64,000 nt of DNA, from contig CAWDLW010000025.1 in NCBI GenBank assembly GCA_963803145.1, forward strand, positions 1 to 64,000, written 5' to 3'. The notes beneath the pieces are model-generated. The model was not told the DNA's origin. It saw nothing but the letters and a program-made list of their open reading frames with translations, and did no database searches. The stretch is from Methanotrichaceae archaeon (lineage in GTDB: Archaea; Halobacteriota; Methanosarcinia; Methanotrichales; Methanotrichaceae). The position numbers and the translations under genes were made by a program. Numbering within the stretch: the first letter of the stretch is position 1; each line of letters starts with the position of its first letter. Positions 42,306-59,860 of the stretch are shown here, one piece after another.

Positions 42306-42752
<447 letters not shown>

Positions 42753-42788
42753 TTATGTGCTCACATGCTCATCAATTTCACGCACACT

Positions 42789-44003
42789 TTAAGCATAAGC
42801 CTTCTCGCCATGCTGGGAGATATCGAGTCCTACGTACTCTTCTTCTTCGCTTACCCTAAGGCCCAGTGTTGCGTCCACAATCTTTGCCAGCACAAAGGTC
42901 ATCACGAATGCGTAGATCACCGATGCTCCGGCGGCCATGATTTGAACCAGGAACTGGTGGCTGTTTCCATAAAGCAGCCCAGAGAAGCCGTTGATTGCAG
43001 GGCTAGCGAATATGCCCGTTGCGATTGCTCCCCATAGTCCGCCGGTGCCGTGTACTGCCCAGGCATCGCAGCTCTCATCGAGTCCTCTGCCGACACGGAA
43101 GAGCAGAGCTGTGTAGCACAGGACTCCAGCTATACCGCCAATGACTATTGCGGCCATCATATCGACATAACCTGCAGCTGGCGTTATAGCCACTAGTCCA
43201 GCTATAGCTCCGCTGACCATTCCAAGCGCGCTGGGTTTTCCCTTCATCCAGCTTGCTGCCATCCAGGTCAATGCGCCTGCAGCGGCAGCTGTGTTTGTAA
43301 CGGCGAAGGCTGAAGCTGCCAGGCCGTTTGCCGCCAAAGCTGAGCCTGAGTTGAACCCGAACCACCCGAACCAGAGTAGGCCGGCACCTATCATAGCCAT
43401 TGGAATGTTATGCGGCTCCATGACATACGATCCAAAGCCGATCCTCTTGCCTATCACCAGTGCTATTGCCAGTGCAGAGAAGCCTGAGCTAATATGCACG
43501 ACTGTGCCGCCTGCAAAGTCCAGGGCCCCGAGCTGAGCTGACCAGCCGCCAGCCCAGACCCAGTGAGCCAGAGGGTCGTAGACAATGGTCGTCCAGAGCA
43601 GGGCCAGTACTATGAAGGAGCTGAGTTTGACCCTCTCGGCCACTGCTGAAGTGAGTATGGCCAATGTTACTGCAGCGAATACAAGCTGGAACATCATATA
43701 GACGATATGGGGAATATTTCCGGCCAGGGGCGCTGGGTCCATGCCAACGCCGTGCATTCCTATGAAGTTTAACCCGCCTATGACTCCAGAGATATCTGTG
43801 CCGAATGCAAGGCTGTATCCGAAGAGCACCCACTGGATGGATGCCAAAGCGAAGGCCAGGAAAGAGAGGCCTATCATCGAGACGACGGTCTTGCTCCTGA
43901 CGAGGCCGCCGTAGAATAATCCTACACCTGGGGTCATCAGCATTACCAATGCTGTGGCCGCCAGGACCCATGCTGTGTCTCCACTGTTTAGAACCAACTG
44001 CAT
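42789..44003 (-). CDS. amt: Ammonium transporter
   Basis: [38 protein letters not shown]. Confidence 0.95.
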
Positions 44004-44386
44004 CACCTTTGAATTATTATCGTTATGGAACGGAAGCTCTATTGTATGGGCACCTCTGAGCTTCAAGCTTAAGCCTTAAGCTTCAGAGCTGAGATGCCCC
44101 TAAAGCTTCGCAATATCACCCAGACTTGAGCAGTTAAAAGGGTATTTGATATAATTTCTGAAGTTCTATGATCCAATATGATTTGCTGAGAATTGTTCAT
44201 ACAAGTTAAGAACTGATGGTGTTTTCACTTCCTTGATGTACCCGGAATCTCAAGAGTAAAATGATCAAATACGAGACACAAAGAACGTCTATGATAAGGG
44301 ATTGCATCAAATAATCGTAAGAGGCCGTGTGTAGAACTAAACAGGAGTATACTCGCCCAATCTTGCCTAACCCTGTTCATTCTAAC

Positions 44387-45250: not shown

Positions 45251-46069
45251 GAGATCTATCGAAACTGAGGGCGCTTAAATAAATATGGTCTAGGATTTTC
45301 TGACGTTCATGTGAGTCAATAAGTAAATGAGGTAAAAGAAAAAAGACTTAAATAGCTAATCATTATTTATCATAAGCCAGAGTTAAAAAATTTGCAGTAA
45401 GTGGAATAAACTAAGGGTAATAAACGAGGGATAATAAATGAGGGGTAATAAATTAGGCATAATAAGCCTATTTGCAATATTGGTTGTTGTGACCGTACCA
45501 TTTGGACTCGCTAGACCATCTCTTCCGACAATCCCCGGAGCAGCGGATTCGCAATTAGCCAATAAGATAGATTTTAGTTCACCATCTGTTCCGACACTTC
45601 CCGCAGCAGCGAATTCGCAAATAGCTAACATGTTAGGACCTGATTCATCATCCGATCCTGGGACGGGGACTCTCGAACCAACAGGATCTGAACCGGGAGG
45701 AGAATCAGGCTTGGACTTGGGTACAGGGAGCGAAGGCATAACAGTTCCAGAAGAATCGATCATAGTAACTGTAGCGGGACAAGAGCTTCCCTTGGAAAAA
45801 TATCAGACGTATGGAAGTAATGCCCTTTGGATTGAAGGTACGCAGGGCTGGACGCAATATACAAGTGTTCCGCAGTATTCAGATATGTCTCTCATTGTCT
45901 ACACGCCCACCGGAGGCCAAGGGGCCATCTATGAGATGTATCCGAACCAGGGTTACCAAGGAAGCTACACGATTAATATCTATAACTTCTCTCCTGGGTA
46001 CAATCGATTGGGATTCCGTGGAAATATTCCTGGCAGACATATCCTGAGTTTATCAATGAACAAACAGTC

Positions 46070-47207
46070 GAGGATTCCTATAAACCTACCCCCTGCTTTA
46101 GCATCGAAAGTGTTAAATACAGCAAATAGTATTTATTGTTATGGATTCTTTTACTACTTGGGTATTGAAAGGTCTAAATGCAAAGCAAGAGGAGTCTAAA
46201 TTAGCTCAAGTATCTGGATTGATCAATTGGGTTCCCTTTCGTCCTCTTCTGGAAGGGATGTATACTAATAAGACCGAGAAGGGAGGAAGGCCCAACTGTG
46301 ATGTTATTCTAATGTTCAGGATCCTGATTCTCCAGCAGTGGTATGGCCTGAGCGATCTGGCTGTTGAACGGCAAATGGCTGATCGCATATCATTTATGGC
46401 ATTTCTTGGTTTTCCTGATCAGTTCCCTGATTCCAGAACTATATGGTCATTCAAAGAACGAATGGCGGAGACAGGAACAGATAGGCTTGTTTGGGCTGAA
46501 CTTCAAAGACAGTTGGATGCAAAAGGATTGAAGATCAGACGCGGAATTGTTCAGGATGCTACCTTTATAGAAGCAGATCCAGGATCATCGGAGTCAAAGA
46601 AACCACGTGGCGATGAGGCTAAGACACGTCGCAGCAAGGATGGCACATGGGCTAAGAAAGGCAATGAAACTCACTTCGGATATAAGTTACATCAAATAAC
46701 TGATATCGATTACAGCCTAATACGTGATATAGAGACCTCGACTGCATCACTGCATGACAGTCAGGTTGATCTCTCTATCCCTGGCGTGCCAGTTTTCAGA
46801 GATAGAGGATATTTCGGTGTGAAGGCCAAAGGTATTGATTTTACAATGAAGCGCAGGACTACTGATAAACCTCTTTCTGATCTTGATAAAGAACGCAATC
46901 AGTTGATCAGTATCCTCAGATCGCCTGGCGAAAGGCCCCATGCTGTAATCAAGAGGGTTTTCGAGGCTGGAAGAGTGCTTGTTACATCAGTCAGAAGAGT
47001 GCATGTGAAAATGATAGTTACCGCTTTCGCTTTTAACTTGTATCAGCTTTGTACTCTTAAAAAGGCAAATGTCATTTAGGGATAGCGGATGCTATCGAGA
47101 ATTAACTGAAAAAAAACAGGTTAGACCAAGAATAGCGAACATCGTAAGGCAAATCTAGAGTCGATTTAAAAAAACCGCCCTTAGGATACAAGTAAATAGG
47201 AATCCTC
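46070..47207 (+). mobile_element. IS5-family element (1138 bp)
   Basis: TIR GAGGATTCCTAT at both ends; 4-bp target duplication AGTC (46066-46069, 47208-47211). Confidence 0.93.
46141..47079 (+). CDS. IS5-family transposase
   Basis: GGRP, LQQWYGLSD, QDATFI, HFGYKLH, DRGY, RSPGERP. Confidence 0.93.
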   Translation: MDSFTTWVLKGLNAKQEESKLAQVSGLINWVPFRPLLEGMYTNKTEKGGRPNCDVILMFRILILQQWYGLSDLAVERQMADRISFMAFLGFPDQFPDSRTIWSFKERMAETGTDRLVWAELQRQLDAKGLKIRRGIVQDATFIEADPGSSESKKPRGDEAKTRRSKDGTWAKKGNETHFGYKLHQITDIDYSLIRDIETSTASLHDSQVDLSIPGVPVFRDRGYFGVKAKGIDFTMKRRTTDKPLSDLDKERNQLISILRSPGERPHAVIKRVFEAGRVLVTSVRRVHVKMIVTAFAFNLYQLCTLKKANVI

Positions 47208-47546: not shown

Positions 47547-48113
47547 TTGATTGGTATATCCTTGGAGGAAACGGATAATAACTTTATGAAGCTTGTAAAT
47601 AAATTTATAATGACCACACTCTTTGGCGGATCAGCTCTTTCTAACTCGATTATTCTAAAGGTTATAGGAACTGGTTGTATTAGCGGTGGTAGTGATGCTG
47701 AAGCTTCTTTTGAAGCTAAAGTTCCTGGAATTACTATTCCTGTTGTTCCTGGGGTTCCTATACCAATAAGTCTTGGAAATGCGGGAATTAAATTAGAGGG
47801 TGTATCCAAAAAGAATGTTGGATTTTATCTGACATCAAAATCCGGCCTTACTCCCTTTATGACGCTTTATGGTATTCGTAAGTGGTCGCCACTCCATCTC
47901 AACGGCCCTAATGAGATGTTTACTCAACTAACTGCAATGTATCTAAGAGATCAATTCACATACGGGCCAGAAACTTTAGACGATAAAAATACATATATGT
48001 TACAAAGGCACCCTTTCACGCGCCAGATTTTATGTTTACGTGCGAAGGTACTATTTGATAACGTCTATACAATTAGTGGATTAACAAAATGCTATCATAT
48101 ACTGATTGAATAA
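47547..48113 (+). CDS. Hypothetical ORF, possibly a remnant
   Basis: 188-aa ORF with a TTG start; no recognisable motif. Confidence 0.3.
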   Translation: MIGISLEETDNNFMKLVNKFIMTTLFGGSALSNSIILKVIGTGCISGGSDAEASFEAKVPGITIPVVPGVPIPISLGNAGIKLEGVSKKNVGFYLTSKSGLTPFMTLYGIRKWSPLHLNGPNEMFTQLTAMYLRDQFTYGPETLDDKNTYMLQRHPFTRQILCLRAKVLFDNVYTISGLTKCYHILIE

Positions 48114-48141
48114 AAATAAAAAAGAAGATCAGAACAAACTC

Positions 48142-49155
48142 TTACACGCATGGCAGCCAATCAACGCTGATTGAGCCGCATGTGGAGTTGCCCCAGAGCT
48201 GGATGAACTTCTCTATCGAGAAGACACCAGTCAAGTCTTCAACAGACCTGCCATACTCTGCGTGACGTCCCTTGAGCGTGTTCGGCGCGTTTGCTGCTGG
48301 ATCTCGGGATAGCCATCCGATATGAGCAACGCCTATGACGTTGCTGTTCAGATTGGCCTCGAGAACACCTGTACAGCAGGTTGGGCAAGATGGCCCTTCA
48401 TTAATGTTGCCGCCTGTCTCAGCGTTTATGCCGTATCCTCTTGTCTTGACCTCGGTTGTCTTCTGCAGGTGCTCTGCATGGGTGTATATCTCTGTCAGAA
48501 CTGCGCCGATCCTGTAGTTCTGGACGCACAGCTTCTCAATCCACTTCTGGTCGTATTGACCGGTCTGGTATGAGACAGGCATGTACTCGAACTCTGCATC
48601 CTTGGTGAAGTTGATGTAATCCATCTTGCAGTTCGTGTCAGCATAAGTACAGCTATAAGACAGAGGGTATTGGTTAGTATCAAGCTGTCTCTCAGCCTCG
48701 AGCTCAGTCCTCTCTATGATAACGTTGCCGGAACCTGACTCCTTCTCTACTAACTTCTGGCCGGAAAATCCATACTGCGTAGATATGATCGTCTCTACGT
48801 TCTTGTATCCTACGCCCTTTACGCTTGCCTTCTCGTACATGTAATTGCCATTGCCAAACGCCGCCTGATCTAAGCCTAAATGGAGGATCGAATCCTCCTG
48901 AATGTTATAGTCATTTAGGGTAAGGGCATCATCGAGTTGTTTGTCGGCAAAAATTAGACGCTGCTGGTTTGGTGGGATTCCTTCTTTATCCTGAATCTTC
49001 GCCTTGACTTGAGCGATGGTATCAGTAGGTTCCACCTCTAGTGAGATAGTCTTACCTGTCAAAGTCTTTATAAATATTTGCATCGCCACTGAATCAAGTG
49101 TAAACCCAAACAACAGAATAAAGACCAGCAGTAGACCGATTAACCTCCTAGTCAC
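48142..49155 (-). CDS. Secreted protein: signal peptide + eukaryotic-like ubiquitin domain + Cys-containing archaeal surface domain
   Basis: Residues 25-95 (48871-49083) [19 protein letters not shown]...HLGL are 56/71 identical to ubiquitin; GGGGG SD before GTG. Confidence 0.9.
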
Positions 49156-49213
49156 TATCCGTCCCCCCTAATCCAAGTGTATCTGGCTATATGGATTACA
49201 TTATTCATATTTA

Positions 49214-50296
49214 TAGTTAATCCACGTAATTTTTACCTCATAGATACCCTTAAATAATTAATATACGATATAGCCGTTCATGGGCAGGAAACCTGTAATT
49301 GTAAGACATATCTCGAAGGTAGAATTAGATCAATTGTATAAAGATGAGAGAAACATAAGAATTAAAGAACGGCTACTAGCGATAATACATTTATACGAAG
49401 GAAAGAATGTATATATAGTAGCTGATATTCTTAAACGAAGTGAAAAGACAATAAAGAATTGGCTAAGCGATTGGAACAAACAAGGATATGATGGATTGAT
49501 ACCACAGAATAGAAACGGCAAAGAACCAATGATATCTTTTGATGAATGGGATAAAATTATCGAAGAGATTGAGGACAAAGGAATGACTATAAAAGAGGTA
49601 ATAAAATATGCAAAAGACACAAGAGGCGTAGAATATTCGTATAAAGGTGGTTGGAAGATTTTAAGATCAATAAAGAAAGTCAAATATGGTAAACCATATA
49701 TTAGAAATAATAAGAGGCCTGTTAATGCAGAAAGTTTTCTAAAAAAAGGATAGATTCAGTAATAACAACAGTCAAAGAACCTATTATTGGATTCCTTGAT
49801 GAAAGCTCTTTGCAACAGCGACCTAATACACGCAGGGTTTTAAACACCCATATGCTAAATTATCAACCTGGAAAAGTTAGGTCTAGAACTGTTTTTGGGT
49901 TCATTGCATTGAATGGAAATGATGAAGTTATGGTCTCTCACTCATCCAAGAAAGAAGATTTAATGATCTTCGCCCAAAAATTGAGAAGTAACAATATTAT
50001 GAGACCAATATGTATTGTCCTAGATAATGCTAGAATACATCTAGCTAAGAAGTTTAGGGCATTAGCCCACGAACTTGATATCCATTTAATATATAACGTG
50101 CCATATTCCCCTGATTTAAATCCTATAGAGTTCGGTTGGAAGGATTTTAAAAGAGAGATATCAAAATATACTGATTTTGATGAAGCTATTGAGGATGCCC
50201 AAGATTGCGCTTTACAAATATTTTATTCCAATAAAGATGGATACTCTAAGTCTTGGATAAAGCAGTTTATAAGGTAAAAAGTTGGGAGAATGACTA
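49214..50296 (+). mobile_element. IS630-family element (1083 bp), relative of 17426-18508
   Basis: TATAGTTAATC / GAATGACTATA ends with TA duplication; ORFs 49280-49753 and 49810-50277 with an A-run frameshift. Confidence 0.9.
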
Positions 50297-50451
50297 TAGT
50301 TTATCGTTAAACATTGTATGAAGGATTAAAAAAAGTCAAATAGGCGCACACGCTGCAAGCTGGGACCTTTCAGTTAGATGCAGTCAGATGATTTTTCGAT
50401 CTGACCAGCAAAAATCAAAGATCAAAAATAGTTGGGATAAAGGGCGCTAAT

Positions 50452-50790
50452 TCAAACCGCGCTGCACCCTCTTTCCTTCGTCCTCACTCGAACAACATCC
50501 TCCACAGTATAGATGAAAATTTTGCCGTCTCCAGCCTCGCCGGTGTGTGCAGTTTCGCAGATTGTATCGATCACCGTCTCTGCATCCGCGTCATCCACAA
50601 CAAGCTCCAATTTTATTTTTGGCAGGAACTCGACTCTATAGTCTCCCGCACGCCACTGAAGAGCAATGCCCTTCTGCCTTCCTCGGCCCTTGACCTCAAT
50701 GGCGGTCATTCCCGAGAAGCCTTTTGCATCCAGCTTTTCCCTAAGAAGGTTCAGCTTCTCAGGCCGAATTATCGCCTCAATCTTCTTCAT
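50452..50790 (-). CDS. glnK: P-II nitrogen regulator (second copy)
   Basis: [30 protein letters not shown]. Confidence 0.93.
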   Translation of the reverse strand: MKKIEAIIRPEKLNLLREKLDAKGFSGMTAIEVKGRGRQKGIALQWRAGDYRVEFLPKIKLELVVDDADAETVIDTICETAHTGEAGDGKIFIYTVEDVVRVRTKERGCSAV

Positions 50791-50799
50791 GTCTAAACC

Positions 50800-52062
50800 T
50801 CAAGAGTAAGCTCCTTCTCCGTGCTGGCTGATGTCGAGTCCAACGGACTCCTCCTCATCCTTGACCCTGATGCCCATGACTGCATCTATGGCCTTGGCGA
50901 TGCCGAAGGTTACTACAAATGAGTAAATCCAGACGCTTACGATTGCAATTATCTGCACAACCACCTGATGCGCATTTCCTGCAAAGAGCCCGGCTGATCC
51001 GATGCTTGCGAAAAACCCTGTTGCAAGGACGCCCCAGGTGCTGCCCATGCCGTGGCATGCGAGCACATCAAGAGAGTCATCTACCTTCTTGCTGCCTCTT
51101 ATGATGAGAATTGCATAGTAACCTACAATAGCAGCGCCTACACCTATGGGAATTGCCGCCAAAGGCGTAACGAAGCCTGATGCAGGAGTGATCGCCGCAA
51201 GTCCAGCCACTGCACCTGTGACTATTCCCAGGGCGCTGGGGGCTCTATGCCTCCATGAGAGTATCATCCATGTTGTGGCTGCGGCAGCTGCTGCAGTGTT
51301 TGTAGTGACAAAGGCATTTGCAGCTATGCCATTTGCTGCAAGGGCCGATCCTGCATTGAACCCAAACCATCCGAACCAGAGCAGGGCAGCGCCCATGACC
51401 GTCGTAGGTATATTATGCGGTTCCATTGGGTCAGTCCCAAAGCCCTTTCTTGCCCCGACAACCATAGCTACCGCGAGCGCTGCAACTCCTGCGCTTATGT
51501 GTACAACGAGGCCGCCCGCAAAGTCCAGTACACCTAATTGAGTCAACCATCCTCCTCCCCAGACCCAATGAGCTATTGGATCGTAGACAAGGGTAGCCCA
51601 TGCGAGGGAAAAGATCAGGAATGAGCTGAACTTTATTCGCTCGACAAAGCTTCCAGTGATGAGTGAAACGGTTATCACGGCGAACATTGCCTGGAAGATC
51701 ATGAACGTGAGACCTGGTATTGTAAGGCCCTCTTTCACATCTATGCCGACTCCACTTAAGCCCAGGTGTTCAAGGCCGCCTATGATTCCGCCGATATCCT
51801 TTCCAAAGGCTAAAGTGTAGCCGAGGAGAATCCATTGAAGGCTTATTATGCCCATGATTGCAAAGCTGAATATTATCGTCGATATGGCATTCTTTTTCCG
51901 AACCATTCCCCCGTAAAATAGCCCCACTCCTGGAATCATTATGAGTACAAGGGCCGCACTGATGAGCACCCAGGCATTATCTGCAGCATTTATCTGCCCG
52001 GTATCTGCAGATGCTGTGCCCAATAGAGCAGCCAATAATAGCAATAGCCAAACTGCACGCAT
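50800..52062 (-). CDS. amt: Ammonium transporter (second copy, with signal-like N-terminus)
   Basis: [32 protein letters not shown]. Confidence 0.95.
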   Translation of the reverse strand: MRAVWLLLLLAALLGTASADTGQINAADNAWVLISAALVLIMIPGVGLFYGGMVRKKNAISTIIFSFAIMGIISLQWILLGYTLAFGKDIGGIIGGLEHLGLSGVGIDVKEGLTIPGLTFMIFQAMFAVITVSLITGSFVERIKFSSFLIFSLAWATLVYDPIAHWVWGGGWLTQLGVLDFAGGLVVHISAGVAALAVAMVVGARKGFGTDPMEPHNIPTTVMGAALLWFGWFGFNAGSALAANGIAANAFVTTNTAAAAAATTWMILSWRHRAPSALGIVTGAVAGLAAITPASGFVTPLAAIPIGVGAAIVGYYAILIIRGSKKVDDSLDVLACHGMGSTWGVLATGFFASIGSAGLFAGNAHQVVVQIIAIVSVWIYSFVVTFGIAKAIDAVMGIRVKDEEESVGLDISQHGEGAYS

Positions 52063-52190
52063 TGTTACCACCAATTGATATGAAAAATTGCTATTTAATA
52101 AGCGTGTTTAGGAAAAGATATGTAAAATTCATAGAAATTATGATAAATTATGATCGCGGCTGAATTAAAGGTTTAAGGCCAGATGCTGCA

Positions 52191-53671: not shown

Positions 53672-56383
53672 ATGCCGCCAGATACCTCATCGCCCATAGG
53701 CTTCAAGGTTTTGGTAATAGTATCCCGACCTTTGGATCTCAAGGACCTCCCGAACATTGCAGACCAGTGGGCCCTGCTCGATGGTTTGAGGAGAGTCAAT
53801 GCCCCCGCATACCTGAAGATTCTCCGGCCGCCCACAGTGGAAGGCCTCCGCACAGAAATCCTGAGCGGTTACGATATTGTTCACTTTGATGGACATGGCT
53901 CCTTTGGAGTGCGCTGCTCAGGCTGTGGCTGGCTCAATCCATCAGGAAGCGGGGCGTGCGGCCGATGTGAAGCCATTCTAGAAAACCAGGATGCTAAAGG
54001 CCACTTTTTCTTCGAGCGGGAAGATGGGAAGTTCGATTCTTTAGCTGCGGATGAGCTGGCGGAGATCATCATGAGCGATCCAGGATCTACTACAAAACTA
54101 GTCTTCTTGAGCGCATGCGAATCTGCCAAGGGAGGAGAATCCAGTCTCATGAATGCGCTGATAAAGAAGGGCGTTCCTGCAGTTCTGGGAATGAATGAAA
54201 CCGTCCCGGCCAGGGCGACCATGGCCCTGGCAGCCCCCTTCTATGCCGGTCTGGGAGCAGGAATGACCATAGCCAGAGCCTTCCAGGCCGCCCTGCCAGC
54301 CCTGAAGCGATTGGATGACGGCGCTGATCTTCAGAAAATCCCTATGTTGGATGGGCCAGGAAAGGAGATACGCCTTCTATCCTCCAAGGTTGCTGGAAAG
54401 GTAAGCTTCGATATCGAGCCACTTTTTGGGGTTCCGAGCCACGAGTTTGTGGGAGATTACATACGCAGCGATCTGCCTCGTGGTCGGAAGGGATTTGTCT
54501 CACGAGCTATAGACGCACTTCAGGGAGGAGAAAAGCTCGTCGTCCTCACAGGCCAAGGCGGAATAGGCAAAACTGTACTCGCGGCCGAGGTTGCACGGCG
54601 ATTGGTCTGGCGCTATCAAGGTGGAATCTTTTGGCGGAGTGCTGCCGATATGAAGCAATTGGGCTTGAATGAAGTGCTGGACGCTTTTGCCAGTGTCTTC
54701 GGCCCCGAGTTCCGCACGCTTCCCATCGACGCTAAACGCGATCAGGTTCTTAGTTATCTGCGAAATTACGACACCTCCAGCCTCTTAGTAGTGGACAACG
54801 CTGAGAATGTGCAGGACGAAAACCTCTGGCGTTTCCTGGAGAGCATCTCGCAGCCCAGTGCAGCTCTCGTAACCACACGGATAAGCCTGCCCCGAGAGGG
54901 CCGAGAGATCCGCGTGGAGGAGATGGAGCCGTTTGAGGCAGCCAGGCTCTTTATTAAAGAGGCCAGGCAGCGCTCACCCAAGTGGGGAGAGCACCTGAGC
55001 AGCGAAGATACAGACTGCTTGGACGAGATATCCCGCATACTCCACGGCCATCCGCTAGCTATCAAGCTGGTGGCTCCCCTGGTGGCAAGCAGAAGTTTGA
55101 CCAGCATTCGGGATGAACTTCGAAGAAATCCACCCAAAGGAGTATTAGATCGCTTTGACGTCTCTTACGCAGGCCTAACTGAGAGCCAGAAGGAACTGTT
55201 CCGCCGAATGGCTGTTTTCTATAGCTCTGTGATGGATCATGCAATTAAGGACGTGTGCTTGGATAGTGTCCAGAAAGATGATTTATCGATCTCAGATGGG
55301 GATCTCGGCGAGCTAGTCGGGAAGTCCTTTGTGGACAGAATTGAGGTTTCTGCTCAGGACGAATTAGGTAACGAGTCTATCGTTTATCGCTACCGCCTTC
55401 ATCCTCTCACGCGCCAGTATGCTATTGCTAAGGCTGGGGAGGATGTTTTGGCCAAGTATCGTGCTAGAGCCGCAAAGTACTTCCTGGGTTATGCTCAGCA
55501 TTTCCGTGAAAACTTCAACATGCTGGAGTGGGAGCGGGAGAATATCCTAGCTGGGATGGACTGGGCAGTGGAACAGCAGAGATCGGCATCCAATGAGGAG
55601 CTAGAGTCCGCTTCCTCCTGTGTTCTCCAATTCATGTTTGCCATTGATGATTATTTAGATACTAGAGGCTACTGGTCCGAATACGGACTGCGTCTTAGTC
55701 AGGCCATTGATGCTGCTGATGCTACTGAAGATAGAAAAGAGAAATCCATTTGGTTGTGTAACCTTGGAACTCTGGCTCAAAAGACTGGTGACTATGATGA
55801 GGCTCGTAAGCTCTACCAGCAGAGCCTAAAAATCTATCAGGATCTGGATGATAAAAAGGGCGCTTCTTATGTACTAGGAAATCTGGGCGTATTGGCTCAG
55901 ACAAATGGCGATTATGATGAGGCTAGACAGCTGTACCAACAAACTATAGATGTGGCAAACCAGCTTGAGGATAAAAGCAGCCTATCGAGGGGACTGCACC
56001 AGCTGGGTAACTTGGCCTATATGATCGGCGACTACGACGAGGCTCGTGGACTCTACCAGCAGAGCATGGAGATCAAACAGGCTCTGGGCGACAAGAGCGG
56101 GGTTTCCAGGTCACTGCACCAGTTGGGCATTCTGGCTCAAGACACGGGCGACTACGACGAGGCTCGCAGGCTATACCAGCAGAGCATGGAGATCGATCAG
56201 TCTCTGGGCGATAAGAGTGGCGTTTCCAAATCATTGCATCAACTGGCACTGCTTGAGGAGAGAACCGGGAATGTGAAAGAGGCATTGAGGCTAATCCGCC
56301 AAGCTGAGATAGCGTTCAAGGGACTAGGCAGCCCTTACGAGAAGCAGGCTCGTCAGGTTAGAGAAAGACTTGAGAGAAAGTGA
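53672..56383 (+). CDS. CHAT protease - STAND (NB-ARC-like) NTPase - TPR protein
   Basis: VHFDGHG and FLSACES (His/Cys dyad), GQGGIGKT, LLVVDNAE, GHPLAI, RLHPL, five TPRs. Confidence 0.92.
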   Translation: MPPDTSSPIGFKVLVIVSRPLDLKDLPNIADQWALLDGLRRVNAPAYLKILRPPTVEGLRTEILSGYDIVHFDGHGSFGVRCSGCGWLNPSGSGACGRCEAILENQDAKGHFFFEREDGKFDSLAADELAEIIMSDPGSTTKLVFLSACESAKGGESSLMNALIKKGVPAVLGMNETVPARATMALAAPFYAGLGAGMTIARAFQAALPALKRLDDGADLQKIPMLDGPGKEIRLLSSKVAGKVSFDIEPLFGVPSHEFVGDYIRSDLPRGRKGFVSRAIDALQGGEKLVVLTGQGGIGKTVLAAEVARRLVWRYQGGIFWRSAADMKQLGLNEVLDAFASVFGPEFRTLPIDAKRDQVLSYLRNYDTSSLLVVDNAENVQDENLWRFLESISQPSAALVTTRISLPREGREIRVEEMEPFEAARLFIKEARQRSPKWGEHLSSEDTDCLDEISRILHGHPLAIKLVAPLVASRSLTSIRDELRRNPPKGVLDRFDVSYAGLTESQKELFRRMAVFYSSVMDHAIKDVCLDSVQKDDLSISDGDLGELVGKSFVDRIEVSAQDELGNESIVYRYRLHPLTRQYAIAKAGEDVLAKYRARAAKYFLGYAQHFRENFNMLEWERENILAGMDWAVEQQRSASNEELESASSCVLQFMFAIDDYLDTRGYWSEYGLRLSQAIDAADATEDRKEKSIWLCNLGTLAQKTGDYDEARKLYQQSLKIYQDLDDKKGASYVLGNLGVLAQTNGDYDEARQLYQQTIDVANQLEDKSSLSRGLHQLGNLAYMIGDYDEARGLYQQSMEIKQALGDKSGVSRSLHQLGILAQDTGDYDEARRLYQQSMEIDQSLGDKSGVSKSLHQLALLEERTGNVKEALRLIRQAEIAFKGLGSPYEKQARQVRERLERK

Positions 56384-58675: not shown

Positions 58676-59860
58676 CTATATTAACTGCCAATAGATCAGG
58701 GGTGCAAGTGCCAAGAGGGCTATACCTGTCACAAGCCTTATACCAGCTCGGTAGTCCTTTCTGTAGGCATCCACCTGCTCGGGGCTCATGCCTAGGGCGA
58801 TGAATCCGCCAAGGATGATTATGGGCAGAATAATCCCTATGTTATAGAACAGGAGATAAACTGAGCCTTCGAAGTAGCTCTTAGAGGATATAAGGTCAAG
58901 TATCGCGAGGTAAACAGCACCGACGCAGGGCGCCTTAACAAGTGAGAACAGCGCCCCTATCAGGAAGTAGGAGCTGTGTTTTCCGCTCGTTACCCCAGCC
59001 TTCACATATTTTAGCGCCCAATCAGTGCGGAATAATGAGTTCTTTCCTGCTCTCAGCCTTCTCCAGTCCTCGACATGCGCCAGGCCAAGAACGACAAGGA
59101 AGACGACTAGGATATACCTGAAGCCTGATTCTAATGCCTCGCCCTGAAGAAGATGCTGCATCCCGAGGCCGAAGAGGAAGTACATTGTGAATATTCCAAG
59201 GGAAAAGGAAATTATCATCGTAATAAGTTCACGCTTTCTCCCTGCGCTTGATAGGACCGAAGCTGCAAGAAATACCAGGATCCCTAAGAGGCAGGGGTTA
59301 AAGCCCGCGATCAGCCCTGCAGCCAGAACCATGGAGACAGTAGAGAGTGAAAGCTGCCCTAGGCTTATATCTGAGATGCCGCCGGTCAGATTGAAGCTTT
59401 GGTTCGTTTGATTACTGCTGTTGAGATTATTAGTACTGAGATTATTATTCGAATTGTTTTGATATTGATTTATATTCTGTATGATGCTCTCGTTGGTGCT
59501 TGTATTGGCAAGAGCCTCGCGGATCATTCTATCAAGCTTGCCGGTATCTCCGTCGTAGGTCTTGTAGCCGATAACCGTATGGCCGATTATTACAGAGGGT
59601 ATATCCGATTTTACCTTGTACTCCTTGATGATCCTGTGTCCCTCATCTGTGAAATAATCATACTTAACGAGAGTTATACTCTTGTTCTCGGCCATAATGC
59701 TGTCTATAGTTCTCTCTGCAGCGGCGCATTTCGGACAGCCGGGCGATTTAAGCAGTATAATTTCTGTGTTTGCGCTTGCCAGGCTAACTAATAGAGGCAG
59801 GGCCAGAACCAAAATAAGCATAAGCATTGCTCTGTAGGACTTCAAGCCAAAGGCACGCAT
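58676..59860 (-). CDS. Thioredoxin-like + CcdA/DsbD transmembrane protein
   Basis: CPKC, GFNPC, KAPCVG; multiple TM helices. Confidence 0.85.
   Translation of the reverse strand: MRAFGLKSYRAMLMLILVLALPLLVSLASANTEIILLKSPGCPKCAAAERTIDSIMAENKSITLVKYDYFTDEGHRIIKEYKVKSDIPSVIIGHTVIGYKTYDGDTGKLDRMIREALANTSTNESIIQNINQYQNNSNNNLSTNNLNSSNQTNQSFNLTGGISDISLGQLSLSTVSMVLAAGLIAGFNPCLLGILVFLAASVLSSAGRKRELITMIISFSLGIFTMYFLFGLGMQHLLQGEALESGFRYILVVFLVVLGLAHVEDWRRLRAGKNSLFRTDWALKYVKAGVTSGKHSSYFLIGALFSLVKAPCVGAVYLAILDLISSKSYFEGSVYLLFYNIGIILPIIILGGFIALGMSPEQVDAYRKDYRAGIRLVTGIALLALAPLIYWQLI

Follow-up and report, generated by a model that had tools for sequence, protein, structure and literature searches.

A ubiquitin domain without a conjugation tail fused to a probable sheath protein core in Methanotrichaceae archaea

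The extreme conservation of ubiquitin (Ub) is usually attributed to its many intracellular partners in eukaryotes. A gene in a 64,000-nucleotide stretch of a Methanotrichaceae archaeon genome (GenBank: GCA_963803145.1; contig CAWDLW010000025.1, positions 1 to 64,000; hereafter the window) raises the question of what a eukaryote-type Ub does at the start of a protein that a methanogen appears to export. Our preferred reading, to which we assign a probability of about 0.6, is that the gene product is a chimeric subunit, exported for the sheath of a Methanothrix-like filament, on which it would carry a non-conjugatable Ub.

The gene occupies positions 48142-49155 of the minus strand and encodes 337 amino acids (aa) followed by a stop codon (48142-48144). 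Its start was assigned to the GTG at 49155 and not to the ATG of the Ub, because a Shine-Dalgarno-like GGGGGGA (49162-49168, minus strand) lies 6 nt upstream of this GTG. Residues 1-24 (49084-49155) constitute a putative Sec-like signal peptide, in which our own heuristic recognised TRR, a 14-residue hydrophobic run and S-V-A ahead of the predicted cleavage site before methionine (Met) 25, the Met1 of Ub. This supports the original prediction of a secreted protein with a signal peptide directly preceding its Ub. The signal peptide is conserved in comparison with the copy from the same genus (omega 0.16). A Tat-type reading of TRRLIG was dropped, as the twin arginine is replaced by RK or missing in other copies. 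The Ub domain (residues 25-95, Ub positions 1-71; 48871-49083) is followed by the linker DQAAFGNG, delimited by alignments of the fusions (residues 96-103; 48847-48870), and by a core domain whose family ends in VDWLPC-x (residues 104-337; 48145-48846), all on the minus strand. The linker is the shortest among the fusions; the others have about 9-25 residues and are often Pro/Thr-rich. The uninterrupted frame from Ub into a Cys-containing domain agrees with the original prediction; the domain comprises 234 aa, and the whole protein contains eight Cys (169, 176, 210, 257, 260, 261, 326 and 336). The proposed methanogen host is likewise supported, because the nearest relatives of the C-terminal part bear the names Methanothrix or Methanotrichaceae and the window contains Fae-Hps and other archaeal genes.

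A Pfam search assigned residues 27-96 to the ubiquitin family PF00240 (E 4.1e-28; 97.4 bits, cut-off 25.4), and a phmmer search against PDB chains aligned residues 24/25-95 to human ubiquitin. Foldseek gave 79% identity over 71 columns, as expected from the 56 of 71 identical residues counted by hand beforehand. The AlphaFold2 (AF2) model displayed a Ub block with pLDDT values of 83-95 over residues 21-90 and superimposed on solved ubiquitins with an rmsd of 0.5-0.7 Å over 71 columns (Foldseek). On its score above the cut-off and its predicted beta-grasp fold the domain is a member of PF00240. The sequence confirmed that L8, I44 and K48 are retained, as are H68 and lysines 6, 11, 27, 29 and 33, that positions 63 and 70 carry E and G (K63E, V70G), and that RLRGG is absent. 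DQAAFGNG takes its place after L71 and is followed in frame by 234 more residues. Since RLRGG with its free Gly76 is missing and the chain runs on for 234 residues, the window Ub cannot, judged by its sequence, be a conjugatable modifier. A search for E2 enzymes (PF00179) revealed no match in the window's own genome (99.3% complete), but also none in 14 control genomes, so that its power is unproven.

Mobile elements lie on both sides of the gene. An IS630-like element (49212-50298, plus strand) with 31-nt terminal inverted repeats and HTH and DDE_3 open reading frames (49280-49753 and 49810-50277) lies about 58 nt upstream of its start codon, and an IS5-like DDE transposase (46141-47079, plus strand; Pfam DUF772 and DDE_Tnp_1) lies downstream. 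The contig of a related strain diverges from the window at 49213, i.e. at the IS630-like element. Flanking insertion sequence (IS) repeats, together with an assembly of 51 contigs and an estimated contamination of 6.8%, could suggest that the fusion is an assembly chimera or a eukaryotic contamination of the metagenome-assembled genome. However, its junctions are spanned by contigs from two studies. A 22.7-kb contig (X1) covers 48785-49213 with 7 differences and bridges both the signal peptide/Ub and the Ub/core junction, the latter of which is also bridged by a 271-b contig from the other study (X4; 48697-48967) with 0 differences. The Ub segment has a GC3 of 0.44 and a codon-adaptation score of 0.74, both no more than about 1.3 SD away from host windows of 213 nt, and archaeal genes lie to either side of the gene on its 164.7-kb contig. 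The same fusion was also found in five other genomes and in a protein cluster of 21 members, and we consider an artefact extremely improbable. In RNA run X10 the core region was covered at 90-99% identity, probably by paralogues, while the Ub part had no cover; run X11 contained only short, divergent pieces.

A search for PF00240 in Methanotrichaceae revealed the domain in 8 of 105 genomes (the window's and 7 of the 104 others) and in none of 14 control genomes. The order signal peptide, Ub, linker and core recurs in the metagenome protein P0123 and in genomes G085, G046, G072, G059 and G001; in the last of these a contig end truncates it. The gene is thus not a singleton, and the signal peptide-Ub module is also found in many bacteria. 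All complete Methanotrichaceae copies are fused, the partner being either the structural core or an adhesin-like protein of 1491 aa, and no stand-alone Ub was detected among them. We found no neighbours common to the Ub-core genes of different species; an exception to this lack of synteny is G059, where a Ub-less paralogue of the core adjoins the fusion gene.

Most pairs of archaeal Ub sequences showed dS values from 0.6 to saturation, dN of 0.01-0.07 and omega of 0.01-0.07. Purifying selection on archaeal Ub is strong. The window Ub is a fast-evolving outlier that is near-neutral on its own branch: about 20 nonsynonymous and 8.5 synonymous changes give an omega of 0.60-0.72 (about 0.65), compared with 0.06-0.10 on the sister branch (G001). 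It differs from the conserved form of the family by 17 substitutions, including V70G in the I44 patch, G47D, R54L and K63E. The tree used is a quick tree carrying SH-aLRT support only. Because of this near-neutral omega and the IS element 58 nt upstream, the window copy may be losing whatever Ub does elsewhere. One could go further and see a decaying relic in the Ub domain or even the entire gene, on which selection would have relaxed once function was lost, in a region ridden with IS elements; the copy in G058, in which Met1 is changed to Thr and a stop has arisen, is a clear pseudogene. We regard decay as quite unlikely for the window gene, since its frame is intact over 337 codons, its Ub fold is confidently predicted, and core (omega 0.14) and signal peptide are still constrained. 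Moreover, a copy of about 98% identity is kept in another strain in which the IS element is absent, and a second lineage (L019, P0123) displays a similar surface divergence in an intact gene. In our preferred reading, Ub would have remained nearly unchanged in most carriers, while in the window lineage its surface drifted and its fold was kept.

The relatives of the core give an indication of what the Ub is attached to. The Ub-less paralogues to which the original prediction had pointed were found in the window's own genome, three of them in tandem. All have a signal peptide according to the heuristic and open frames of 257-281 aa; the signal peptide ends in GMAGA, and ANYMYEK of the mature protein follows directly. 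Altogether the core family comprises 1944 relatives, which are Methanothrix-named wherever they are named, with matches of 233-310 aa. Its profile detected members in 12 of 12 sampled genomes of the family, each with 5-7 or more copies and with tandem sets as in G000 (contig C25) and G043 (contig C69). Outside Methanotrichaceae, matches were confined to one genus in one family (7 of 54 genomes) and to 1 of 64 genomes in a second family. Seven viral contigs from IMG/VR carry the core, with 62-80% identity over core residues 1-234.

These features resemble those of the sheath-forming (SH) proteins described by Medvedeva, Borrel and Gribaldo (ISME J 2024). [quoted passage not shown] They are reported there as multi-copy and clustered in all Methanotrichales and patchy elsewhere, and copies in viruses reach up to 75-94% identity with the SH proteins of the host. 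The core family matches this description in signal peptide, length, clustered multi-copy distribution, predicted self-association and viral carriage. One of its members is the Ub-less M. thermoacetophila protein ABK14458.1 (WP_011695854.1), for which a mapping to an Mthe_ locus tag is absent from the main texts. A secreted 271-aa neighbour of ABK14458.1 showed no significant match to the core family profile (hhalign E 0.009, probability 4.5%).

Because Ub swamped the fold search with the whole model, the core was refolded alone. In the resulting AF2 model (pLDDT 70.7, pTM 0.71) the core is all-beta, with long hairpins. A VIA-align search with this model against 48,161 chains gave noise-level matches only (outer-membrane barrels and LptA-like sheets, with Z 6.6 at best); the PDB holds neither the M. 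hungatei sheath model nor a solved SH structure for comparison, NCBIfam has no model for the core and the ESM Atlas gave no usable match. Prediction with three copies gave an ipSAE of 0.75 (runs: 0.77, 0.75 and 0.75), compared with 0.00 for the best of three controls; the ipSAE mark is reached by 20 of 30 solved pairs and 1 of 23 solved single chains, in a calibration set-up that differs from ours with its three copies and our own alignment. Contacts agreed by at least 87% between the trimer runs, with partner pLDDT values of at least 74, and placed residues 1-23 of one core antiparallel to residues 196-220 of the next. The core is thus predicted to self-associate head-to-tail by beta-strand pairing. 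Taken together, distribution, all-beta model, trimer prediction and viral copies are circumstantial evidence that the 234-aa domain is most likely an SH protein core.

From these data we propose the following course of events. A Sec-type signal peptide would be cleaved just ahead of the Ub Met1, leaving a mature protein with a folded, GG-less Ub, a short linker and the N-terminal strand of an SH-type core. This core would join neighbouring SH subunits head-to-tail via beta-strand pairing, and its conserved Cys would probably add disulfides between subunits. The Ub-SH protein would in this way be built into the proteinaceous sheath, with Ub as an appended domain. Display would then be the best supported of the three options that the original prediction had offered for the Ub. 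Because only eight linker residues stand next to the interface-forming strand, the N-terminal Ub might hinder polymerisation.

This position would also be compatible with an intramolecular helper or regulator instead of a displayed ligand, i.e. with Ub as a fast-folding, very stable tag by which an aggregation-prone, amyloid-like subunit would stay soluble during export, or as a cap that ends or nucleates the polymer. Ubiquitin fusions increase the solubility of recombinant proteins. The short linker ties Ub straight to the N-terminal strands of the predicted subunit interface, and Ub is present on only 1-2 of the 5-13 SH copies per genome, as expected for a minor special subunit. The large majority of SH paralogues, however, would be exported and assembled without Ub. 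Four bacterial autotransporters (L051, L060, L085 and L099) carry Ub as their sole recognised passenger, which leaves nothing to chaperone, and near-identity to eukaryotic ubiquitin, kept at an omega of 0.01-0.07, is more than a solubility tag would require. A helper role therefore appears unlikely, and we retain the reading as an exported sheath subunit.

At least 431 relatives of Ub were found in genomes of prokaryote species. Among 80 prokaryote loci, 73 Ub frames were parsed, and in 56 of these a signal peptide abuts the Ub Met1 according to the heuristic. Fourteen of 35 scanned bacterial Ub proteins end in a surface anchor: an autotransporter (6), SLH (4), IPTL-CTERM (2), a Por_Secre_tail (T9SS tail; 1) or a dockerin (1). 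Since the signal peptide-Ub module occurs in 8 of 105 Methanotrichaceae genomes and in many bacteria, the window Ub is more likely one of a pool of exported ubiquitins shared by prokaryotes than the result of a private transfer from a eukaryote. The eukaryote-type Ub of the original prediction is supported and would ultimately stem from a eukaryote or a giant virus. A recent transfer is not visible, because the best bacterial Ub coding sequences in a DNA-level search are at most 84% identical to those of Methanotrichaceae; 71 residues are too few to pick a donor lineage. The Methanotrichaceae Ub signature P19 S22 E24 Q28 A57 is present in 5 of 83 viral frames. Of the two objections anticipated by the original prediction, a chimeric assembly is contradicted by the contigs described above; the class did prove widespread, but a characterisation was not found in the openly searchable literature. 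In the parts of this literature covered, including PMC11467351, PMC11354881, PMC3482391 and PMC12663171, we found neither a Methanothrix ubiquitin nor a signal peptide-Ub surface protein outside Bacteroides, and did not find described the pattern of exported Ub on surface-anchored proteins of many bacteria and on an archaeal sheath core.

The Ub-SH protein would be the archaeal form of a layout shared across phyla, in which surface-anchored proteins carry a signal peptide and a Ub at the end remote from the anchor. Tentatively, and with the odds rather against it, this layout may reflect a mobile signal peptide-Ub module that was grafted onto the surface anchor of each lineage (in bacteria an autotransporter, SLH, a T9SS tail, an exosortase tag or a dockerin; in Methanothrix-like archaea the sheath subunit) and became a widespread, hitherto unrecognised surface ornament, used for mimicry against or towards protist grazers and hosts. 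Ub would then be near-identical to the eukaryotic form because its targets are eukaryotic ubiquitin-recognising proteins. If this mimicry took place, Ub-SH would be its first archaeal case and the first whole cell sheath decorated with ubiquitin.

The same Ub is thus apparently exported by archaea and many bacteria without an evident ubiquitin system and tethered to anchors, and yet is mostly under equally strong purifying selection. If confirmed, the fusion would represent a new type of cap for archaeal sheaths, and 'bacterial ubiquitin' would no longer mean one Bacteroides toxin alone but also a surface-display module found across phyla. The interactions of free-living prokaryotes, among them the globally important acetoclastic methanogens, with eukaryotic predators or hosts would also become accessible to experiment. 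The diverged window copy and its conserved relative from the same genus offer a natural contrast for asking which Ub surfaces matter outside the eukaryotic cell.

Several known systems can be set beside this protein. With SAMPs and other prokaryotic Ub-like modifiers the window Ub has in common a beta-grasp fold in an archaeon; SAMPs are established as cytosolic, GG-ended, E1-like-activated and far from ubiquitin in sequence (PMC2948915), traits that the window Ub does not show. Giant viruses and other viruses of eukaryotes likewise carry near-canonical Ub outside cellular eukaryotes. In contrast to the prokaryotic copies, which are predicted to be exported and mostly lack GG, 67 of 83 viral frames keep LRLRGG and only 1 of 83 has a signal peptide-like start; because LRLRGG is kept and signal peptides are absent, viral Ub would feed the conjugation system of the host.

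BfUbb and BoUbb of Bacteroides fragilis and B. ovatus resemble the window protein in having a eukaryote-type, horizontally acquired Ub with an export signal, no GG and no evident conjugation machinery. BfUbb is a free small protein with about 63% identity to human Ub, which, as far as described in PMC11467351, uses a SusCD transporter to enter target cells and has a periplasmic PPIase as its target. The window Ub is 79% identical to human Ub, and its relatives reach about 93-97% with canonical forms. As BfUbb and BoUbb are reported to kill related strains, the window Ub might similarly be freed from its precursor and act as an antimicrobial against competitors. We consider this improbable, since none of the complete Methanotrichaceae copies is a stand-alone Ub, the variable linkers show no conserved cleavage motif, and the import and target systems of BfUbb are, according to the same source, Bacteroides features. 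We found no toxin-like feature in the window protein. The analogy to BfUbb drawn in the original prediction breaks down on architecture, as the window Ub is not a free protein of ubiquitin size but is permanently fused to a core predicted to polymerise.

The SH proteins of Methanotrichales with variable caps, among them the 'sheath adhesins', share with the window protein the signal peptide, an all-beta core predicted to polymerise, many tandem copies per genome, viral copies, conserved Cys and variable inserted or appended domains. The word 'ubiquitin' is absent from the main text of Medvedeva et al. (2024), where SH proteins are described with no cap or with a helix, beta-sheets, Ig-like or carbohydrate-binding caps. 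Unlike these caps, the extra domain of the window protein is N-terminal, derived from eukaryotes and common to unrelated bacterial surface proteins.

The ORF at 48142..49155 (-) encodes 337 aa from a GTG start, preceded at 6 nt by a Shine-Dalgarno-like GGGGGGA read from the sequence. This is the position given in the original prediction, and its central observation of a eukaryotic-type ubiquitin in a secreted methanogen protein was confirmed, with export predicted by a heuristic: 24 residues of Sec type with an n-h-c layout lie directly ahead of Met1 of the ubiquitin. The PF00240 (ubiquitin) match covers residues 27-96 (Pfam; E 4.1e-28; 97.4 bits against a cut-off of 25.4), and residues 24/25-95 align with human ubiquitin in a phmmer search of PDB sequences. 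Foldseek returned the same identity to human ubiquitin as had been counted by hand (56/71, 79% over 71 columns). L8, I44 and K48 are kept and positions 63 and 70 are E and G, all as previously listed; H68 is also kept. The RLRGG tail is indeed absent: DQAAFGNG follows L71 and the chain continues into the Cys-containing C-terminal domain of 234 aa (the core, residues 104-337), with eight Cys in the whole protein. We consider it most likely, at a probability of roughly 60%, that this protein (Ub-SH; SH, sheath-forming) is an exported sheath subunit carrying a non-conjugatable ubiquitin on the sheath.

A chimeric assembly, named in the original prediction as a possible refutation, is excluded by contigs of two studies that cover the fusion. 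Logan contigs of four public sequencing runs were compared with window 47900-49400. Run X1 contains a 22.7-kb contig over 48785-49213 with 7 differences, which spans the signal peptide, ubiquitin, linker and 62 nt of the core. Run X4, from another study, contains a 271-b contig over 48697-48967 with 0 differences; this run may be the source sample of the window. The codon usage of the ubiquitin segment (GC3 0.44, codon-adaptation score 0.74) lies within ~1.3 SD of the host, measured over 213-nt windows of long ORFs. RNA contigs of a peat metatranscriptome (X10) cover the core region 48141-48868 (90-99% identical); their word depths, hundreds to about 16,000, are very high, though contig depths are unable to rank expression. 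The cover suggests transcription of the core family in the peat, the reads probably stemming from ubiquitin-less paralogues.

The gene is bounded by mobile elements: an IS5-like transposase (46141-47079) on one side and, 58 nt upstream of the start codon, an IS630-like element (49212-50298) on the other. The latter has 31-nt inverted repeats (49212-49242 and 50268-50298, 74% complementary) and a transposase split into two ORFs (HTH 49280-49753, DDE_3 49810-50277). It is missing at this site in the X1 strain, whose contig leaves the window exactly at 49213, and is thus a strain-specific insertion. Two amtB-glnK pairs for an ammonium transporter and P-II (42309-44066 and 50455-52074) flank this mobile-element-rich stretch; Fae-Hps lies further along the window. 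A comparison of the Ub-SH neighbours between species revealed none that is conserved. Two ORFs nearby have no Pfam match, one of 253 aa at 45438-46199 (+) that starts like a signal peptide and contains a Gly/Ser/Pro-rich region, the other a putative ORF of 188 aa at 47547-48113 (+), convergent with the Ub-SH gene. The window also encodes a CHAT (caspase-like)-NB-ARC/AAA-TPR protein of 903 aa with many TPR repeats (53672-56383, +), STAND-type as in conflict systems, and a DsbD-type thiol-disulfide membrane protein (58679-59860, -). For sheathed methanogens, Medvedeva et al. (ISME J 2024) describe DsbD with a thiol-exchange partner protein, and disulfides linking the sheath hoops.

PF00240 was detected in 8/105 Methanotrichaceae genomes from two genera (7/104 without the window's own) and in 0/14 controls. 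The layout of signal peptide, ubiquitin, linker and core is that of the window in G085, G046, G072 and contig C114 of G059; G001, of the window's genus, has it too, but a contig end interrupts the frame. The metagenome protein P0123 is a further ubiquitin-core fusion. The ubiquitin copy of G042 is interrupted by a contig end and that of G058 is broken. In the latter (L013, G058:C375, 1507-1755, -) Met1 is replaced by Thr, the presequence is degenerate and a TAA is reported inside the Pfam match; this copy is a probable pseudogene. In L020 (G059:C442, 1412-5884, -) a window-type signal peptide and ubiquitin, here ending RIRGY, head an adhesin-like surface protein of 1491 aa with five SdrD_B repeats, SpaA/Cna_B-like folds, three DUF11 repeats and no SH core; the module of signal peptide and ubiquitin is therefore portable within the family. 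One cluster of ubiquitin-core fusions has 21 members named 'ubiquitin' or 'ubiquitin family protein' at source; databases label such fusions 'ubiquitin' already, automatically.

Pairwise Nei-Gojobori estimates for the archaeal ubiquitin copies gave dS from 0.6 to beyond measurement (saturated or nearly so), dN of 0.01-0.07 and, in most pairs, omega of about 0.01-0.07, which implies active maintenance of the ubiquitin sequence in these archaea. That most carriers conserve it almost perfectly might point, if only tentatively, to eukaryotic ubiquitin-binding partners. Positions 19, 22, 24, 28 and 57 of the Methanotrichaceae copies carry the signature P, S, E, Q, A, which is common to several bacterial exported ubiquitins and 5/83 viral frames. 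No ubiquitin coding sequence from elsewhere was more than 84% identical to those of Methanotrichaceae, so the sequences fix neither donor nor transfer date. The window's ubiquitin is an outlier with 17 substitutions relative to the conserved form of the family. Three-taxon counts, which are rough and involve no likelihood test, assign about 20 nonsynonymous and about 8.5 synonymous changes to its branch (ratio 0.60-0.72) and a ratio of 0.06-0.10 to that of G001, while signal peptide (omega 0.16) and core (0.14) are still constrained. Judged from these counts, the ubiquitin has drifted in the window's strain.

A quick maximum-likelihood tree built from 37 core domains groups the window's core with six ubiquitin-less proteins of its own genus (SH-aLRT 98) and places the Ub-SH cores of the second genus in a clade apart (SH-aLRT 96). 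With all six ubiquitin-bearing cores constrained to group, the log-likelihood falls by 26.7 units (AU p 0.036). The histories of core and signal peptide-ubiquitin module are hence partly separate, which on this tree would be due to module shuffling or gene conversion.

Scanning a single genome for each prokaryote species yielded at least 599 pattern matches and at least 431 confirmed ubiquitin relatives, the best 80 loci of which were analysed. Within these, 70/80 contained 73 ubiquitin frames found by motif, and 56/73 had a signal-peptide-like presequence ending directly before Met1. The remainder include stand-alone RLRGG forms and polyubiquitin on tiny contigs, the latter likely eukaryotic contamination. 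In 80 viral control contigs only 1/83 ubiquitin frames had such a presequence, and 67/83 ended LRLRGG. Among the carriers are isolates and complete genomes (Paenibacillus, Cohnella, Dyella, Limnohabitans, Ruminococcus albus 8, Methylolobus). Among these best loci (L022-L101), exported ubiquitin is frequent across many bacterial phyla, often on surface anchors; L027 (Rhodocyclaceae) and L061 (Clostridia) each hold a tandem pair of such genes. In two MAGs titled Methanobacteriota archaeon (L056, L088) ubiquitin closes a longer frame that lacks a signal peptide; ...SSTSGR comes before it and RLRSS or RLRGN after it, a different, non-exported context.

Pfam domains were scanned in 35 of the 39 complete presequence-bearing frames that extend more than 60 residues past ubiquitin, omitting three archaeal rows and one near-duplicate. 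A surface anchor ends 14/35 (autotransporter beta-domain 6, SLH 4, IPTL-CTERM 2, Por_Secre_tail 1, dockerin 1), 8/35 have other extracellular modules only (Ig-like, cadherin-like, Flg_new, LRR, CBM, FGE-sulfatase, DUF6345) and 13/35 no further Pfam domain. Ubiquitin is the sole recognised passenger domain of four autotransporters (L051, L060, L085, L099). These and the other anchor-ended proteins have a recurrent theme, a surface-anchored protein with ubiquitin at its distal end; in the Methanotrichaceae version the anchor would be a sheath subunit. On this reading, Ub-SH is the archaeal member of a cross-phylum set of surface-tethered ubiquitins, which is apparently undescribed. The original prediction would have been undone by a fusion family both widespread and characterised; the class is widespread, and full-text literature searches outside subscription journals found only the Bacteroides ubiquitins.

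The core has no model in Pfam or NCBIfam. A collection of 5.8 billion proteins contains 1944 relatives, only 180 representatives at the 50% clustering level, and all named ones are from Methanothrix or Methanotrichaceae; the family is narrow yet very copy-rich. A 2.6-kb contig recorded as 'Candidatus Methanosuratincola petrocarbonis' carries one member of this Methanothrix family (P0276), which may reflect mis-binning or transfer. The family profile matched every sampled Methanotrichaceae genome (12/12; 5-7 or more copies apiece), and outside them, in a phylum sample, only 7/54 genomes of one family (one genus) and 1/64 of another. The window's genome has 11 further core matches. Four are close ubiquitin-less paralogues, as the original prediction had proposed to look for, 79-88% identical and each bearing a signal peptide that precedes ANYMYEK...; three lie in tandem on the window's contig. 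In this family the ...VDWLPC-x end is conserved, and two loops at fixed places hold large insertions that vary. Seven IMG/VR viral contigs (L138-L144) carry full-length copies, 62-80% identical to the window's, in agreement with the SH-like proteins that Medvedeva et al. (ISME J 2024) report for Methanothrix viruses.

AF2 predicts an all-beta core with long hairpins (pLDDT 70.7, pTM 0.71). Compared with solved structures the model gave no convincing match (best Z 6.6); the M. hungatei SH model is absent from the PDB and was never deposited. Three core copies were predicted to bind head-to-tail, residues 1-23 running antiparallel with 196-220 of the next copy. The ipSAE was 0.75 (runs 0.77, 0.75, 0.75), and the best of three controls scored 0.00. 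When the tool was calibrated, 20/30 proteins solved as pairs and 1/23 solved as single chains reached the mark; our use of three copies and our own alignment depart from that calibration. The runs agreed in ≥87% of contacts, with a partner pLDDT of ≥74. The core domain is most likely that of a sheath-forming (SH) protein. As described by Medvedeva et al. (ISME J 2024), SH proteins have a signal peptide, a length of 150-350 aa and an all-beta amyloid-like core with variable caps; every Methanotrichales genome has clustered copies of them, up to 40, and they also occur in particular Methanomicrobiales genera and ANME-1. The window's core family fits this published profile.
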